Shown: piece by piece, positions 13,406 through 37,200 of the stretch
Layout: the number at the start of each line of letters is the position of its first letter
Position numbering within the stretch: position 1 is the first letter of the stretch
Virus record (IMG/VR): IMGVR_UViG_3300044695_003767
Strand: one strand, 5' to 3'
From: a virus
DNA: 64,000 nucleotides
The notes under the pieces: generated by a model
What the model was told of the DNA's origin: nothing
Seen by the model: the letters and a program-made list of their open reading frames with translations, nothing else
Database searches by the model: none
Translations under genes and position numbers: made by a program

Positions 13406-13622
13406 TTTAGTATTTGGTTCCTTTCTAACAGTATTGTTTCTTATAGTGGGAGTAATGGTAGGTTGGGTAGCAAGAGAATATATGATGAACTATCGGGAAA
13501 TTCCAAGACCTCACCCCGAAATGTTTGATAATCAGGGAAACTTGATTCCAGATGAGGTGATCGCATTTAATTTTGAGAACTATCATGACTACGACGACAC
13601 AGAAGAAGACAACGACGACTAA
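13392..13622 (+). CDS. Small membrane protein
   Basis: N-terminal TM helix, HPEMFD.QGNLI motif, acidic tail. Confidence 0.65.
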   Translation: MLAVSLVFGSFLTVLFLIVGVMVGWVAREYMMNYREIPRPHPEMFDNQGNLIPDEVIAFNFENYHDYDDTEEDNDD

Positions 13623-14193
13623 AACAACTAAACCAAAGGTAGTTAAAGAAACTCCTATTGTGGAACTTCCTAACAATCCTCTTGCTTTTGAAGTCTTTGA
13701 TTTAATTTCTAAGCAAAGATCTAACCAAAAGAAGGTAGAACTGTTGCAAAAGTATAATCATGATTCAATACGGGCTCTTTTGATTTGGAACTTTGATGAA
13801 TCAGTAATTACAATGCTTCCTGATGGGCCAGTTCCTTATTCGAGTTATGGTGATCAAACTGTAAATAGTGGAACTCTTTCTAATAAACTTACGGAAGAAA
13901 TTCGAGCTATGTATGAGACTGGTTCATTCTCTTTAGGTGTATCGGATGTTCAAGGAAGAACAACAATTCGTAAAGAGTATAAACATTTTTATCATTTTAT
14001 TAAGGGCGGTAATGATGCTATAAGCTCCATTCGTCGTGAGACAATGTTTATCAATCTTTTGCAGGGACTTCACCCACTTGAAGCAGAAATTATTTGTTTC
14101 GTTAAAGATAAAAAACTTCAAGAAAAATATAAAATTAGCAAAGAAATTGTATCTGAAGCTTTTCCTCAGATTACTTGGGGAGGACGTTCGTGA
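13585..14193 (+). CDS. Conserved T4-like phage hypothetical protein
   Basis: LLIWNFD..LP.GPVPY, RRETMFI.LL.GLHP.EAE; probable start MTTTT. Confidence 0.65.
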   Translation: MTTTTQKKTTTTKTTKPKVVKETPIVELPNNPLAFEVFDLISKQRSNQKKVELLQKYNHDSIRALLIWNFDESVITMLPDGPVPYSSYGDQTVNSGTLSNKLTEEIRAMYETGSFSLGVSDVQGRTTIRKEYKHFYHFIKGGNDAISSIRRETMFINLLQGLHPLEAEIICFVKDKKLQEKYKISKEIVSEAFPQITWGGRS

Positions 14194-14528
14194 ACCAAGT
14201 TATTAATAAAACTACGGAAAAGCATATGGACCATTGGACATCAGCAGAAAAGGAAACCTGTAAGTCACGATACGGTTGTGACATTTTGATTGAAAATTGT
14301 TCGTATGCTGATGTCTGTACTAAAGAAGCACCGAATGATGCACATATCATTAAATATATGGTCGATGATAAACTTTGCTTTGATTTAACAAGGGGAACTA
14401 AAATTCGTTTATTCGATATGTATTGGGATAAGTTTCGTGAAAATTTAAAGTCAATTGATTGGGGATACGGCAAATACAATCCAAAGACCTGGGGTTACCA
14501 GGCACCTAAAACCAAAAAGCGGAAGTGA
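14175..14528 (+). CDS. Hypothetical protein
   Basis: ORF with D.TRG...FD.Y.D.F...G.G.YNP..WG; true start probably further downstream. Confidence 0.6.
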   Translation: MGRTFVNQVINKTTEKHMDHWTSAEKETCKSRYGCDILIENCSYADVCTKEAPNDAHIIKYMVDDKLCFDLTRGTKIRLFDMYWDKFRENLKSIDWGYGKYNPKTWGYQAPKTKKRK

Positions 14529-14588
14529 TTCCCCAGATCGGGGGAAAAAATCCCGGCAAAATTTTTGTCTATTAAGATTTTATAAAAT

Positions 14589-14604
14589 TGTAACATTTTA
14601 TACA
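14589..14604 (+). promoter_or_regulatory. NtcA box
   Basis: TGTA-acatttta-TACA equals the extended GTA-N8-TAC consensus; lies just upstream of TTGCTA-N18-TATAAT (14613-14642). Confidence 0.6.
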
Positions 14605-14650
14605 ATCAATTGTTGCTAAATATCCCCGAAAGGGAGTATAATACTCTCAT

Positions 14651-14866
14651 CGTTCATCTGGAAATCCAGACGGAAGTAAGACAACTCGGAACGGGTCGTT
14701 CATCTATGGAGACACTCATTCTTACATGCCTACAAGCACAATTGATTGCTGGGAGAGTTAATAAACAAGACATTCCCAGACAATATAAGAATGATTTGAT
14801 ATGGGAGATTAAACAAATTTCTCCAAAAGAGTGTAAAATAGACGCAAAAGTTGACTGAAGGAACGC
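14651..14866 (+). ncRNA. Glutamine riboswitch (glnA-type), tandem/interlocked aptamers
   Basis: CGTTC-A-TCTGG(AAAT)CCAGA-CGGAAGTAAG...CTGAAG-GAACG matches the glnA-RNA core; a second CGTTCATCTA...TAGACGCA unit is present; upstream of a DUF4278-like gene. Confidence 0.75.
14706..14858 (+). CDS. 50-aa peptide ORF embedded in the riboswitch
   Basis: ATG at 14706 in an aptamer stem, TGA inside CTGAAGGAACG; METLILTCLQAQ...PKECKIDAKVD. Confidence 0.55.
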   Translation: METLILTCLQAQLIAGRVNKQDIPRQYKNDLIWEIKQISPKECKIDAKVD

Positions 14867-14897
14867 TACCTAACCTAACAGTAAAGGAGCAAACCTA

Positions 14898-15029
14898 ATG
14901 ACAACAGCAACCTATCGTGGTGTTAAATACAACGTAGAAGATCGTAAGATCAATGTTCTTCAATTGATTAAAGAACAAATTGAAAAAGAACAACGTCGTA
15001 AAGAAGCACAATTAGCAGCAATTAAATAA
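14898..15029 (+). CDS. DUF4278-like small protein (43 aa)
   Basis: AAGGAG RBS; MTTATYRGVKY motif; DUF4278 genes are known targets of glutamine riboswitches. Confidence 0.7.
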   Translation: MTTATYRGVKYNVEDRKINVLQLIKEQIEKEQRRKEAQLAAIK

Positions 15030-15033
15030 TATG

Positions 15034-15070
15034 AAGGAGGGTTGATTCCCTCCTTTTTTTATGCTAAAAT
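15034..15070 (+). terminator. Terminator overlapping a sigma70 promoter
   Basis: AAGGAGGG-TTGATT-CCCTCCTT plus T run; TTGATT-N17-TAAAAT. Confidence 0.65.
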
Positions 15071-15091
15071 GTCTTGAGAGAATGGTATCTT

Positions 15092-15247
15092 ATGGACACA
15101 GATAAACTAAAACTTATTGTCCGTAATTTAGAACTCTTAGTTGATTCTCTAAAAGCAGAAATATATTCTGATGTTAGGGCATATAATTTTGATGATATCA
15201 AACCAAAGGAGTTAGATTACGACGAAATTTTTGAGGATTCTGAATGA
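15092..15247 (+). CDS. Hypothetical protein (51 aa)
   Basis: MDTDKLKLIVRNLELLVDSLKAEIYSD...; ATGA-coupled to the next gene. Confidence 0.65.
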   Translation: MDTDKLKLIVRNLELLVDSLKAEIYSDVRAYNFDDIKPKELDYDEIFEDSE

Positions 15248-15399
15248 GAAGTAAAAAAGTAATTCAATTAATTAAAGAAGCACTAAAGCAAGACTATTTG
15301 TATTCTAGTGAAGAACTTCATTTTATGAGAGAACAACTTTCTATGCTACAATTAGAAAAGCAAAATTTAAAAGAATATCGAGGATTTGGAAAGAAATGA
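15244..15399 (+). CDS. Hypothetical protein (51 aa)
   Basis: MRSKKVIQLIKEALK...RGFGKK; ATGA-coupled on both sides. Confidence 0.6.
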   Translation: MRSKKVIQLIKEALKQDYLYSSEELHFMREQLSMLQLEKQNLKEYRGFGKK

Positions 15400-16031
15400 C
15401 AGTTAAACTTATTTCGGTAACTCCCGATGCAGAAAAAACAATGGCATTTATTGCACGAGTTAGCAATCCTGCGAATCAAGACAACGAAAACTATGCCAAG
15501 TTGCTTGCTTATTGCATTAAGCATAATCATTGGTCTGTTTTTGAACAGTCTTCTATGACTCTTGAGATTGAGACCAATCGTGGCATTGCGGCTCAGATTT
15601 TGCGTCATAGGTCCTTTACATATCAGGAATTTTCACAACGATATGCAGATACAAATCTGATCACCGAGAATATTCCTATTCCAGAACTTCGCAAGCAAGA
15701 TACCAAGAATCGTCAGAATTCTACGGATGATCTTGGTGACTATGTGAAGTTAAAGTTCCAATCAGAAATTGCTGAACTGTTTACCAATGCTAATAACCTC
15801 TACAAGAGGATGTTAGAAGCAGGTGTGGCAAAGGAGTGTGCAAGGTTTGTACTGCCCTTAGCGACTCCCACACGTATCTATATGACCGGTTCTTGCAGGT
15901 CATGGATACATTATATCAATCTCCGTTCGGCAAACGGAACTCAGAAAGAACATATGGACATTGCTCTGGAATGTAAGAAGGTATTCACCGAACAATTTCC
16001 AACGGTTGCAGAAGCTCTTGAGTGGATCTAA
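15396..16031 (+). CDS. thyX: FAD-dependent thymidylate synthase
   Basis: HWSVFEQ; RHRSFTYQEFSQRY ThyX motif. Confidence 0.97.
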   Translation: MTVKLISVTPDAEKTMAFIARVSNPANQDNENYAKLLAYCIKHNHWSVFEQSSMTLEIETNRGIAAQILRHRSFTYQEFSQRYADTNLITENIPIPELRKQDTKNRQNSTDDLGDYVKLKFQSEIAELFTNANNLYKRMLEAGVAKECARFVLPLATPTRIYMTGSCRSWIHYINLRSANGTQKEHMDIALECKKVFTEQFPTVAEALEWI

Positions 16032-16057: not shown

Positions 16058-16306
16058 ATGGCGACTTATCCTGTTATTAACAATATCACTGGTGAACAGA
16101 AAGAAGTGGAAATGAGTGTTCACGACTGGGATCAGTGGAAAAAAGACAATCCAGACTGGGCTCGCGACTGGTCTGATCCATCTACTTGCCCTTCTCCTGG
16201 AGAAGTTGGTGAGTGGAGAGATAAACTTGTAAATAAGCATCCTGGATGGAACGAAGTTCTTTCTAAGGCAAGTAAAGCACCAGGTTCCCGTGTAAAAAAA
16301 ATCTAA
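16058..16306 (+). CDS. Conserved hypothetical protein upstream of phoH
   Basis: MATYPVIN..TGEQKE, GWNEVLSK; late-promoter-like TAAATA upstream. Confidence 0.7.
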   Translation: MATYPVINNITGEQKEVEMSVHDWDQWKKDNPDWARDWSDPSTCPSPGEVGEWRDKLVNKHPGWNEVLSKASKAPGSRVKKI

Positions 16307-17064
16307 TGGCAAGAAGAAAAAGAAGTAACGAGATCCAACCAATTGGAGTTGGTTTAACTGCAAAACAAATGAAGAGGAGAAAACCTCTCAGTGCTGAATA
16401 TTTGGTCGATATTGATCCACTGACAGAAAACCAAAAACGTCTATTTGAATCTTATGCCGAAGGCAAACATCTTGTTGCCTATGGGTGTGCTGGAACTGGT
16501 AAGACCTTTATTTCTCTTTATAATGCCCTACAGGATGTTCTAGATGAATCAACTCCTTATGAGAAAATTTATCTTGTTCGTTCTCTAGTAGCTACAAGAG
16601 AAATTGGTTTTCTTCCTGGAACACACGATGATAAGGCAGATATTTACCAGATTCCTTATAAGAATATGGTGAAGTATATGTTCCAACTTTCAAGTGATGC
16701 TGAATTTGAGATGCTTTATGGTAACTTAAAGTCACAGGAAACTATCAAGTTTTGGAGCACATCTTTCCTTCGTGGAACAACTCTTGATAATGCAATCATC
16801 ATTGTGGATGAGTTTCAGAATCTTAATTTCCACGAACTAGATTCTATTATTACTCGTGTAGGTGAGAATACAAAAATCTGTTTCTGTGGTGATGCTTCTC
16901 AATCAGACTTGCAGAAAACAAATGAGCGCAATGGTATTGTGGACTTTATGACAGTCTTGCGTAAAATGCCATCATTTGATATAATTGAATTTGGTGTAGA
17001 CGATATTGTTCGTTCTGGACTTGTTAAGGAGTACATTATTGCTAAAATGGATGCTGGTTTTTAA
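16306..17064 (+). CDS. phoH: PhoH-family ATPase
   Basis: GCAGTGKT, IGFLPG, LRGTTLD, DEFQN, GDASQSDL, DIVRSGLV. Confidence 0.95.
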   Translation: MARRKRSNEIQPIGVGLTAKQMKRRKPLSAEYLVDIDPLTENQKRLFESYAEGKHLVAYGCAGTGKTFISLYNALQDVLDESTPYEKIYLVRSLVATREIGFLPGTHDDKADIYQIPYKNMVKYMFQLSSDAEFEMLYGNLKSQETIKFWSTSFLRGTTLDNAIIIVDEFQNLNFHELDSIITRVGENTKICFCGDASQSDLQKTNERNGIVDFMTVLRKMPSFDIIEFGVDDIVRSGLVKEYIIAKMDAGF

Positions 17065-36592: not shown

Positions 36593-37012
36593 ATGGTAGG
36601 AACTTGTAAAAAATGCGAGAAAACTTTTAAATATTCTCCATCCCAATCAAACGGCATCTATTGTTCCAATAAATGTCAGCAAGAATACCTTTATGAACAA
36701 AATATTACTGATTGGTTGTCCAAAAAAATAACTGGAAAAGTTAGGGATGGAAGGCCAAGTGATTTTGTTAGAAGGTATATGCTTGAAGAAGCAGGACATA
36801 AATGTTCTGAATGTGGTTGGGGAAAAGCAAATCCAGTAAATGGTATTATCTACCTTGAAATAGACCACATAGATGGTTCGAGAGAAAATGGATACAAAGA
36901 AAACTTACGAGTTTTGTGTCCAAACTGTCATACTTTGACTGATACTTATAAAACTTTAAACAAAAAAGTTGGGTATCATAAAAAAAGAAAGCAGTTAAAC
37001 GAGCTGGTTTAG
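36593..37012 (+). mobile_element. Free-standing HNH endonuclease
   Basis: CxxC pairs; LEIDHIDG...NLRVLCPNCH; TATAAATA late promoter at 36561; inserted between tRNAs. Confidence 0.85.
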
Positions 37013-37075
37013 CAATCTGGCGAATGCAATCGACTCATAATCGATGGGAGGCGAGTTCGATCCTCGCAACCAGCA
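37003..37075 (+). tRNA. tRNA with CAU anticodon (elongator Met or Ile2)
   Basis: GCTGGTT/AACCAGC acceptor, ATCGA-CTCATAA-TCGAT, GCGAG-TTCGATC-CTCGC; paired G1-C72, so not initiator. Confidence 0.85.
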
Positions 37076-37117: not shown

Positions 37118-37200
37118 GCGAGTATGGTGGAATCGGTAGACACACCAGACTTAAAATCTGTTGGGCATTGCTCGTGGGAGTTCAAGTCTCCCTACTCGCA
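37118..37200 (+). tRNA. tRNA-Leu(UAA)
   Basis: GCGAGTA/TACTCGC acceptor, CAGA-CTTAAAA-TCTG, variable arm, GGGAG-TTCAAGT-CTCCC. Confidence 0.92.

Follow-up and report, generated by a model that had tools for sequence, protein, structure and literature searches.

The 64,000-nucleotide (nt) virus stretch analysed here, hereafter the window (IMG/VR record IMGVR_UViG_3300044695_003767; all coordinates refer to its given strand), holds at 14651–14866 an element that the comparative evidence marks as a structurally new glutamine riboswitch variant, with a gene embedded in it. We consider it probable that the element is one composite glutamine-sensing RNA, in which two nested cores share the helix P3 and the stem P2b closes around a real gene, and which would control two small proteins. 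An earlier note on this DNA had listed the parts of two aptamer units, unit 1 and unit 2, and each of these parts was found in place on reading the sequence (Table 1). Judging from an Rfam match and from the recurrence of the 3′ motif of unit 2, the unit motifs are beyond chance: the glutamine-I family RF01739 matched 14649–14697 with 42 bits (gathering score 35, E=9.4e-6), covering unit 1 alone, and the 25-nt 3′ motif of unit 2 was detected in at least 120 IMG/VR contigs. Across 14560–14960, no Rfam match was obtained for unit 2 or for the glutamine-II family RF01704 up to an E value of 10, and the other matches were noise.

In the solved glutamine aptamers, the nucleotides that directly follow ACG and GAACG form a long-range pair, the linchpin, that caps the ligand site (PMC6212724, PMC6698751); it is G23-C60 in glutamine-I (PMC6212724) and C19:G41 in glutamine-II (PMC6698751). 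In the window, unit 1 reads ACG-G...GAACG-G and unit 2 reads ACG-C...GAACG-C. Linchpins within the same unit would be G.G (unit 1) or C.C, while both cross-unit linchpins are Watson–Crick pairs, namely, the outer linchpin G14673-C14866, which matches G23-C60 of the solved glutamine-I aptamer, and the inner linchpin C14845-G14694. The same was observed in a comparison set of about 240 phage loci, in which linchpins were counted over 117 distinct cores. The outer cross-unit linchpin, between the base after ACG of unit 1 and the base after GAACG of unit 2, was C-G in 82 cores and G-C in 35, and was thus Watson–Crick in all 117 without a mismatch. The inner cross-unit linchpin, between the base after ACG of unit 2 and the base after GAACG of unit 1, was C-G in 106, G-C in nine and C.A in two. 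For unit 1 and unit 2 alike, the same-unit linchpin was Watson–Crick in only 81 of the 117 cores and mismatched (G.G, C.C or G.A) in 36. The two cross-unit pairs were seen in each of their four possible combinations (77, 29, 5 and 4 cores), and the inner linchpin covaried to G-C, with G present in unit 2 in 18 of 18 riboswitch loci chosen for C in unit 1. In 20 tandems without an open reading frame (ORF) (alignment A4), each cross-unit linchpin was paired in 20/20 and each same-unit linchpin in 14/20.

Since the ACG-X segment is contiguous with the CGUUC and P2 of its own unit, the covariation of the linchpins assigns the P1 partners. Comparison across the loci shows in this way that CGUUC of unit 1 pairs with GAACG of unit 2 to give the outer core, and that GAACG of unit 1 pairs with CGUUC of unit 2 to give the inner core. 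By the same comparison, the outer core is of the glutamine-I type and combines the 5′ half of unit 1 (CGUUC, P2a and CGG-AAGUA) with the 3′ half of unit 2 (GAAG-GAACG-C), and the inner core is of the glutamine-II type in circularly permuted order, combining the 3′ strand of unit 1 (GAACG-G) with the 5′ half of unit 2 (CGUUC, P2b and CGC-AAA). The two P1 helices had been described beforehand as having interchangeable strands; their sequences are indeed identical, but the linchpins show swapped P1 partners in the ligand-competent fold and a nesting of the inner core within the outer core. The glutamine-contacting bases of the solved structures (C1, G2, G22, C58, G59 and the capping pair) were invariant in both cores among approximately 117 variants. 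The loop closing inner P1 was 3–6 nt long across loci (G-GU, 3 nt, in the window), and the linker after the inner linchpin base was always at least 2 nt among the loci compared.

The helix P3 also links the two units. The E-loop is divided in the window, with AGUA and no GAA in unit 1, and GAAG and no AGUA in unit 2, as the earlier note had proposed, and the complementarity that it had pointed out between CAACT of unit 1 and AGTTG of unit 2 turned out to be part of a longer inter-unit helix of eight positions, AGACAACU/AGUUGACU, with seven pairs and one A.A mismatch. In this layout, P3 is formed by the 8 nt downstream of AGUA in unit 1 and the 8 nt upstream of GAAG in unit 2. The inter-unit helix covaries. 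Position 8 was U-A, A-U, G-C or U-G in 112 of 112 distinct cores, compared with a mean of 63 in shuffled sets, and none of 2000 shuffles reached the observed count; compensatory changes were found at position 1 (A-U, C-G, G-U and G-C) and position 5 (G-C, G-U and A-U). Position 3 was nearly always a mismatch, and position 6 was A-U or A.C. The RF01739 alignment of unit 1 in the window presumes instead a local P3 of 2 base pairs (bp), which is broken in more than 25 loci, and a contiguous glutamine-I three-way junction (P1, P2 and a P3 with its own loop, flanked by AGUA and GAA) was absent. Comparison therefore shows an arrangement in which the outer junction with the E-loop (AGUA/GAA) lies at one end of P3 and the inner junction (CG/CGCAAA), which lacks an E-loop and has a C:G cap, lies at the other. 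In a marine subgroup (L159, L195, L210, L226 and L240), the inter-unit P3 is 5 bp long (AGUCA/UGACU or AGUCG/CGACU), GAAGG is replaced by AAAGG, and the inner linchpin is swapped to G-C.

The stem P2b (UCUAU/AUAGA), which is the P2 of the inner core, spans a gap of 130 nt inside unit 2. Among 56 distinct combinations of 5′ and 3′ strands drawn from 86 ORF-bearing loci, positions 1–5 were paired in 56, 56, 56, 54 and 55, respectively, with compensatory variants (U-A, C-G, A-U and G-U) at positions 3–5; beyond position 5, pairing was at chance level. The P2a stems that enclose an ORF showed the same pairing behaviour. The earlier proposal that the P2 stem of unit 2 encloses an ORF is thereby borne out over five positions, and comparison shows P2b as a 5-bp long-range stem around a real gene of 50 amino acids (aa), with the AUG in the stem and the UGA in the core. 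A 4-bp extension of P2b is weakly suggested for the subfamily of the window by RNAalifold analysis of 22 same-length relatives, with A-U, G-U or G-C at pair 16:138 and C-G, A-U or G-U at pair 19:135, positions at which coding constraints are confounded with pairing. The RNA of the embedded gene (14703–14842) had a folding energy of −35.1 kcal/mol, compared with −20.6 kcal/mol for shuffled sequences (z=−4.5). We do not claim special selection for RNA structure in the ORF, as the median z of the relatives was −3.4 (n=36) and downstream control regions also gave −2.35, probably owing to the terminators that they contain.

The embedded ORF is, on the comparative evidence, a real protein-coding gene. 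It is complete with 50 codons, starts in the UCUAU strand and stops at the UGA within CUGAAG, as first described, and its conservation and coding character were supported: the ratio of nonsynonymous to synonymous substitution rates (dN/dS) had a median of 0.15 among 24 distinct window-type sequences, the length of the long P2b inserts was a multiple of three in 86 of 86, and homologs were found in relatives. The other two frames were interrupted by stop codons in 24/24 of the window-type sequences. Long P2 inserts held an ORF of 49–73 aa in all 86 P2b cases and in all 37 P2a inserts read, and in each of these a distance of 9–12 nt separated the AUG from the preceding C of CGUUCA. The stop of the P2b ORFs is the UGA of GACUGAAGG, in or adjoining the core, and the P2a ORFs end at the UAA of AAGUAAG or a few nt upstream; in the window, the aptamer core supplies the stop codon and the codons of the five C-terminal residues (DAKVD). 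No Shine–Dalgarno (SD) sequence precedes the AUG of the embedded gene in the window sequence.

In an alignment of 44 P2a and P2b proteins, the only invariant residues were two cysteines, C8 and C43, and the profiles of the P2a and P2b proteins matched Cys to Cys (hhalign probability 90.7%, E=1.3e-6). Profile search identified at least 938 homolog clusters, none with a Pfam domain. Among the best 120 relatives, 116 carried the core-encoded tail DAKAD or GRK, a count biased by the presence of those tails in the search profile. The window protein matched phrog_504, a family without known function (E=4.7e-4; residues 6–48 to profile positions 10–52 of 53), and was predicted by AlphaFold2 to form a two-helix hairpin with a predicted local distance difference test score of 85. 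Foldseek search of the PDB with this hairpin, a fold too generic for such a search, gave no match at E≤0.001, and searches of Pfam and ESM Atlas with the 50-aa protein gave nothing usable. Two other readings of the protein were rejected: that of a leader peptide sensing through glutamine codons, given five Gln in the window protein, about one in marine relatives and the purifying selection, and that of a lipoprotein or signal peptide from the hydrophobic N-terminus, given just seven residues before Cys8. One ORF subfamily occurs in either stem, with 84% identity over 57 aa between L091:1690–1887 (−) in P2b and L012:3074–3265 (−) in P2a, and with the C-terminal tail DAKAD in the former and GRK in the latter. 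This sharing of a subfamily with a switched tail suggests that recombination at the invariant aptamer cores may carry ORF cassettes from one stem to another. Gene callers fuse the P2a and P2b ORFs of some loci into proteins of 97–126 aa by reading through the core (protein-search matches P0003 and P0102), and several 50-aa members have been misnamed by automatic annotation, for instance as ‘indole-3-glycerol phosphate synthase’ or ‘maleate cis-trans isomerase’.

Table 1. Features of the composite element and of its surroundings in the window
Feature	Position	Strand	Basis or remark
P1 outer core, 5′ strand CGUUC	14651–14655	+	pairs with 14861–14865; sequence invariant in all loci; partner from linchpin covariation
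A of unit 1	14656	+	sequence
P2a hairpin UCUGG-AAAU-CCAGA	14657–14670	+	Rfam alignment; covaries in the 20-sequence alignment A4
CGGAAGUA (CGG-AAGUA)	14671–14678	+	G14673, outer linchpin base; AGUA, 5′ half of E-loop
P3 5′ strand AGACAACU, from unit 1	14679–14686	+	covaries with 14849–14856
CG of unit 1	14687–14688	+	sequence
P1 inner core: GAACG, loop G-GU, CGUUC	14689–14701	+	G14694, inner linchpin base
GAACG of unit 1; CGUUC of unit 2 (3 bases between)	14689–14693; 14697–14701	+	sequence
A of unit 2	14702	+	sequence
P2b 5′ strand UCUAU	14703–14707	+	pairs with 14838–14842; contains the first two bases (AU) of the start codon
Embedded gene, 50 codons plus stop	14706–14858	+	ATG 14706–14708, TGA 14856–14858
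Candidate 4-bp P2b extension, ACAC with GUGU	14712–14715; 14831–14834	+	RNAalifold, weak
P2b 3′ strand AUAGA	14838–14842	+	covariation with 14703–14707
CGCAAA	14843–14848	+	C14845, inner linchpin base; glutamine-II-like junction (CGC, without AGUA)
P3 3′ strand AGUUGACU, from unit 2	14849–14856	+	covaries with 14679–14686
GAAG, 3′ half of E-loop	14857–14860	+
GAACG, P1 outer 3′ strand	14861–14865	+
C, outer linchpin	14866	+
Anti-SD GCU-A-CCU	14865–14871	+	overlaps last P1 base and outer linchpin; RNAfold pairing with 14885–14890
SD AGGAGC of downstream gene	14885–14890	+
43-aa YRG peptide gene (MTTATYRGVKY...)	14898–15029	+	DUF4278-like at N-terminus only
Intrinsic terminator, 9-bp stem then T run	15033–15063 (stem 15033–15056)	+	ends mini-operon
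Sigma-70-like promoter TTGCTA, 18-nt spacer, TATAAT	14613–14642	+	10/12 positions; consensus match only
Candidate NtcA box (T)GTA-N8-TAC(A)	14590–14603	.	just upstream of −35; centre ~52 nt upstream of inferred start
Terminator-like hairpin ending upstream gene	14538–14556		sequence
Neighbouring genes: DUF6433 protein (phrog_461), phrog_485 protein, two small proteins (phrog_878, phrog_9772), ThyX-like thymidylate synthase, PhoH-like protein	13573–14193; 14175–14528; 15074–15399; 15396–16031; 16306–17064		ThyX-like and PhoH-like assignments read from ORF translations only

The element is followed by the gene of a 43-aa peptide, of which the SD sequence is predicted to be masked. According to RNAfold, the unpaired probability of the downstream SD was ~0 without the aptamer, and that of 14888–14890 rose to ~0.96 when 14857–14866 was held in the aptamer; 14885–14887 remained largely paired, with a downstream CCU. 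In most freshwater relatives, an anti-SD CUCUUUAA faces UAAGGAG at the same place, starting at the linchpin C. By analogy, release of the anti-SD by the aptamer would correspond to the mechanism proposed for the type-1 gifB ON switch (PMC6212724). The downstream gene had been called DUF4278-like: the TYRG motif, reported as typical of peptides downstream of glutamine riboswitches, is present, but PF14105 (DUF4278) reached only 14.3 bits against a cut-off of 25.3 (E=0.054) and covered residues 3–20 only. The 43-aa protein matched phrog_5049 and phrog_545, and a gene of the (A/S)xVTYRGV type was located downstream in nearly all related loci.

Upstream of the element, the sigma-70-like promoter is the best promoter-like match of the region, and its inferred start near 14649 lies 2 nt before the aptamer. 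With the upstream terminator-like hairpin and the strong terminator behind the 43-aa gene, this candidate promoter would make the cassette a self-contained unit. GTAN8TAC was found within 100 nt upstream in 92 of 113 related loci, compared with a background of 0.016 per 100 nt (upstream regions of L001–L125), most often at a distance of 58–62 nt from CGUUCA, which is 61 nt in the window. The classical activator position is centred at −41.5, and the centre of the candidate box, near −52, lies one helical turn upstream of it.

From the geometry of the element, we infer a response to glutamine, an exclusivity of translation and folding, and an attenuator-like control. Glutamine would stabilize the nested fold, possibly at two sites, and the bound fold would draw G14865 and C14866 out of the anti-SD helix, turning translation of the YRG peptide ON as published for type-1 gifB. 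The embedded gene has no SD, and the same fold may hold its start region in inner P1 and P2b and lower its translation. Conversely, a ribosome initiating at 14706 would cover approximately 14691–14721 (inner P1 and P2b) and unfold the sensor, and a ribosome terminating at 14856 would cover approximately 14841–14870 (P3 and outer P1), unfolding the sensor and displacing the anti-SD. In this manner, the RNA may set the ratio of the two small proteins by the nitrogen status of the host, with the candidate NtcA box at the promoter as a possible second nitrogen input.

Several points weigh against the composite sensor. The P1 strands are invariant, which leaves two single long-range pairs and P3 as the support of the topology; the counts are drawn from related sequences and take no account of the tree; and the 3-nt loop closing inner P1 is sterically tight. 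Nearest-neighbour energies, from models that leave out tertiary and ligand energy, did not favour the nested fold, with −58.2 kcal/mol for the minimum free energy (MFE) structure, −53.1 kcal/mol with the nested fold enforced and −51.9 kcal/mol with the two units side by side; both folds are 5–6 kcal/mol above the MFE, and the energies do not separate the two. P2b also forms in the ligand-free MFE structure, and masking of the start codon may therefore not depend on glutamine. A ribosome terminating at the UGA (14856) would itself push the anti-SD aside, in which case expression of the downstream gene could be coupled to that of the embedded gene instead of opposing it. 

A more far-reaching version of the composite sensor is conceivable, and we regard it as tentative and rather doubtful: a two-site, strand-swapped sensor with genes in its stems, in which folding and ribosome traffic reciprocally choose among two or three small proteins by host nitrogen, and of which the cores also serve as recombination joints for ORF cassettes between stems and phages. 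We think it unlikely that the ORF is instead a passenger, that is, a small mobile gene in an insertion-tolerant P2 loop, with the riboswitch controlling the downstream gene only and translation of the ORF playing no part in regulation. The RNA evidently works without an ORF, given that 26 of the 117 distinct cores lack one; the subfamily present in either stem suggests cassette-like mobility; and the protein has the look of an unremarkable folded mini-protein. Set against this, the AUG keeps a distance of 9–12 nt from the C of CGUUCA in all inserts read and has no SD before it in the window, the stop lies in or next to the core (GACUGAAGG or AAGUAAG), and almost all of the best 120 relatives have core-encoded tails, subject to the bias given above.

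Less likely still are two conventional aptamers that lie side by side, with P1 formed within each unit and a kissing helix of junction strands as their sole contact, which is what interlocked tandem aptamers would mean literally. Either pairing of the identical P1 sequences is possible, the local P1 of unit 1 can form first during transcription, the energy is similar to that of the nested fold, and unit 1 by itself passes as a complete aptamer in the Rfam score. The linchpins argue for nesting, because the same-unit pairs are mismatched in 36 of 117 cores and the cross-unit pairs never or almost never, a difference repeated in alignment A4; moreover, neither unit alone holds both halves of the E-loop. 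That the cores no longer sense glutamine, and act as a structured scaffold through which a small-protein micro-operon is translationally coupled, processed or stabilized, is very improbable, since the glutamine-contacting bases are invariant in both cores and a downstream gene of the YRG type is regularly found behind glutamine riboswitches, in spite of the permuted order of the inner core and its missing E-loop.

Three freshwater cyanophage isolates, DSL-LC02, DSL-LC03 and S-SRM01, show the layout of the window, each with a homologue of the ORF in it; in S-CREM1 and P-TIM68, both units are present and a short hairpin takes the position of the ORF. Among relatives, homologous ORFs occur in P2a, in P2b, in both stems or in neither: among the 117 distinct cores, the P2a/P2b inserts were short/long in 56 (including the window), short/short in 26, long/long in 20 and long/short in 15. 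A unit-junction scan of IMG/VR added 18 further riboswitch loci. In 185,579 prokaryote genomes, the 3′ motif of unit 2 was detected in six contigs (L246–L251), all from metagenome-assembled genomes or single-cell assemblies; they are labelled Acetobacteraceae, Dehalococcoidia, Rhodospirillaceae, Paracoccaceae and Prochlorococcus, and are probably phage DNA binned or co-sorted with cells; one of the six has the length of a viral contig detected in IMG/VR. The context in the window is that of a T4-like cyanomyovirus with thyX and phoH, and none of the isolates is close to it, with identity of at most 80% over the flanking genes. The riboswitch cassette also stands upstream of thymidylate synthase in S-SRM01 and P-TIM68. 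Two tRNA genes are present in the window at 37003–37075 and 37118–37200 (Rfam, 55 and 58 bits), the second with a long variable arm.

Riboswitch aptamers are usually seen as compact, non-coding and self-contained, and the element described here would combine nested strand-swapped cores, a permuted inner copy and genes inside stems. The ORF-free form of ~95 nt is tractable for structural and two-site binding studies, and the ORF-bearing forms offer a direct test bed for translation versus ligand-dependent folding. In addition, the element points to an unstudied family of two-Cys mini-proteins (the clusters counted above) tied to nitrogen sensing in cyanophage infection. glnA RNAs are known to occur in tandem (PMC2864571, PMC10265488), and a few phages are known to carry glutamine riboswitches (PMC5473149, PMC9964418, PMC9004378), with ‘two aptamers in two cyanophage genomes’ described in one census (PMC5473149). 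Because covariance-model scans report only a fragment of the element in the wrong register, phage riboswitch censuses such as that one undercount elements of this kind. In the literature searched, neither strand-swapped nesting nor a gene inside the stems of a glutamine riboswitch was described, with Ames & Breaker 2011, the likeliest source on tandem glnA RNAs, outside the coverage.

With glutamine-I (RF01739; Synechocystis gifB leader, PMC6212724; S. elongatus aptamer, 5DDP), the element shares the CGUUC/GAACG P1, the P2 hairpin, the AGUA/GAA E-loop beside P3, the G-C linchpin, the anti-SD starting from the linchpin C, an IF17/DUF4278-like downstream gene and a predicted translational ON switch. 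It differs in that its core is built from two distant halves and its P3 ‘loop’ holds a second, complete core plus a gene, and in that Rfam sees a pseudo-complete unit 1 in a register contradicted by covariation. The inner core has in common with glutamine-II (Downstream-peptide motif, RF01704; 6QN3) the CGC after P2, the GGAACG-G, the lack of an E-loop and the C:G long-range pair (CGC...AACGG; C14845-G14694 in the window), and short YRG peptides are likewise encoded downstream. In contrast, the order in the window is permuted, with GGAACGG before CGUUC and a 3-nt loop, and there is no glutamine-II P2 helix; no RF01704 match was obtained within 14560–14960, the H-type pseudoknot order (CGUUC...GGAACGG inside the P2 loop) is absent from the inner core, and unit 1 of P-TIM68 scored 28.8 bits against RF01704 (threshold 33).

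The tandem glycine riboswitch also places two structurally interdependent sites for one amino acid on one leader, but each of its aptamers has self-contained helices and the two dock next to each other, while the helices proposed here are strand-swapped and one core is nested. The group I introns of phage T4 (td, nrdB and sunY) carry endonuclease ORFs looped from peripheral stems. As in the present element, a protein-coding gene fills the loop closed by a long-range helix in a functional RNA, and translation would compete with folding; those introns are ribozymes with mobile endonucleases, whereas the window holds a putative metabolite sensor with a small two-Cys protein, the ends of which come from the sensor core. 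Leader-peptide attenuators (trp, his and erm) have a short upstream ORF of which the translation remodels the downstream RNA. They contain neither a conserved folded protein nor an aptamer, whereas the peptide encoded in the window is under purifying selection.

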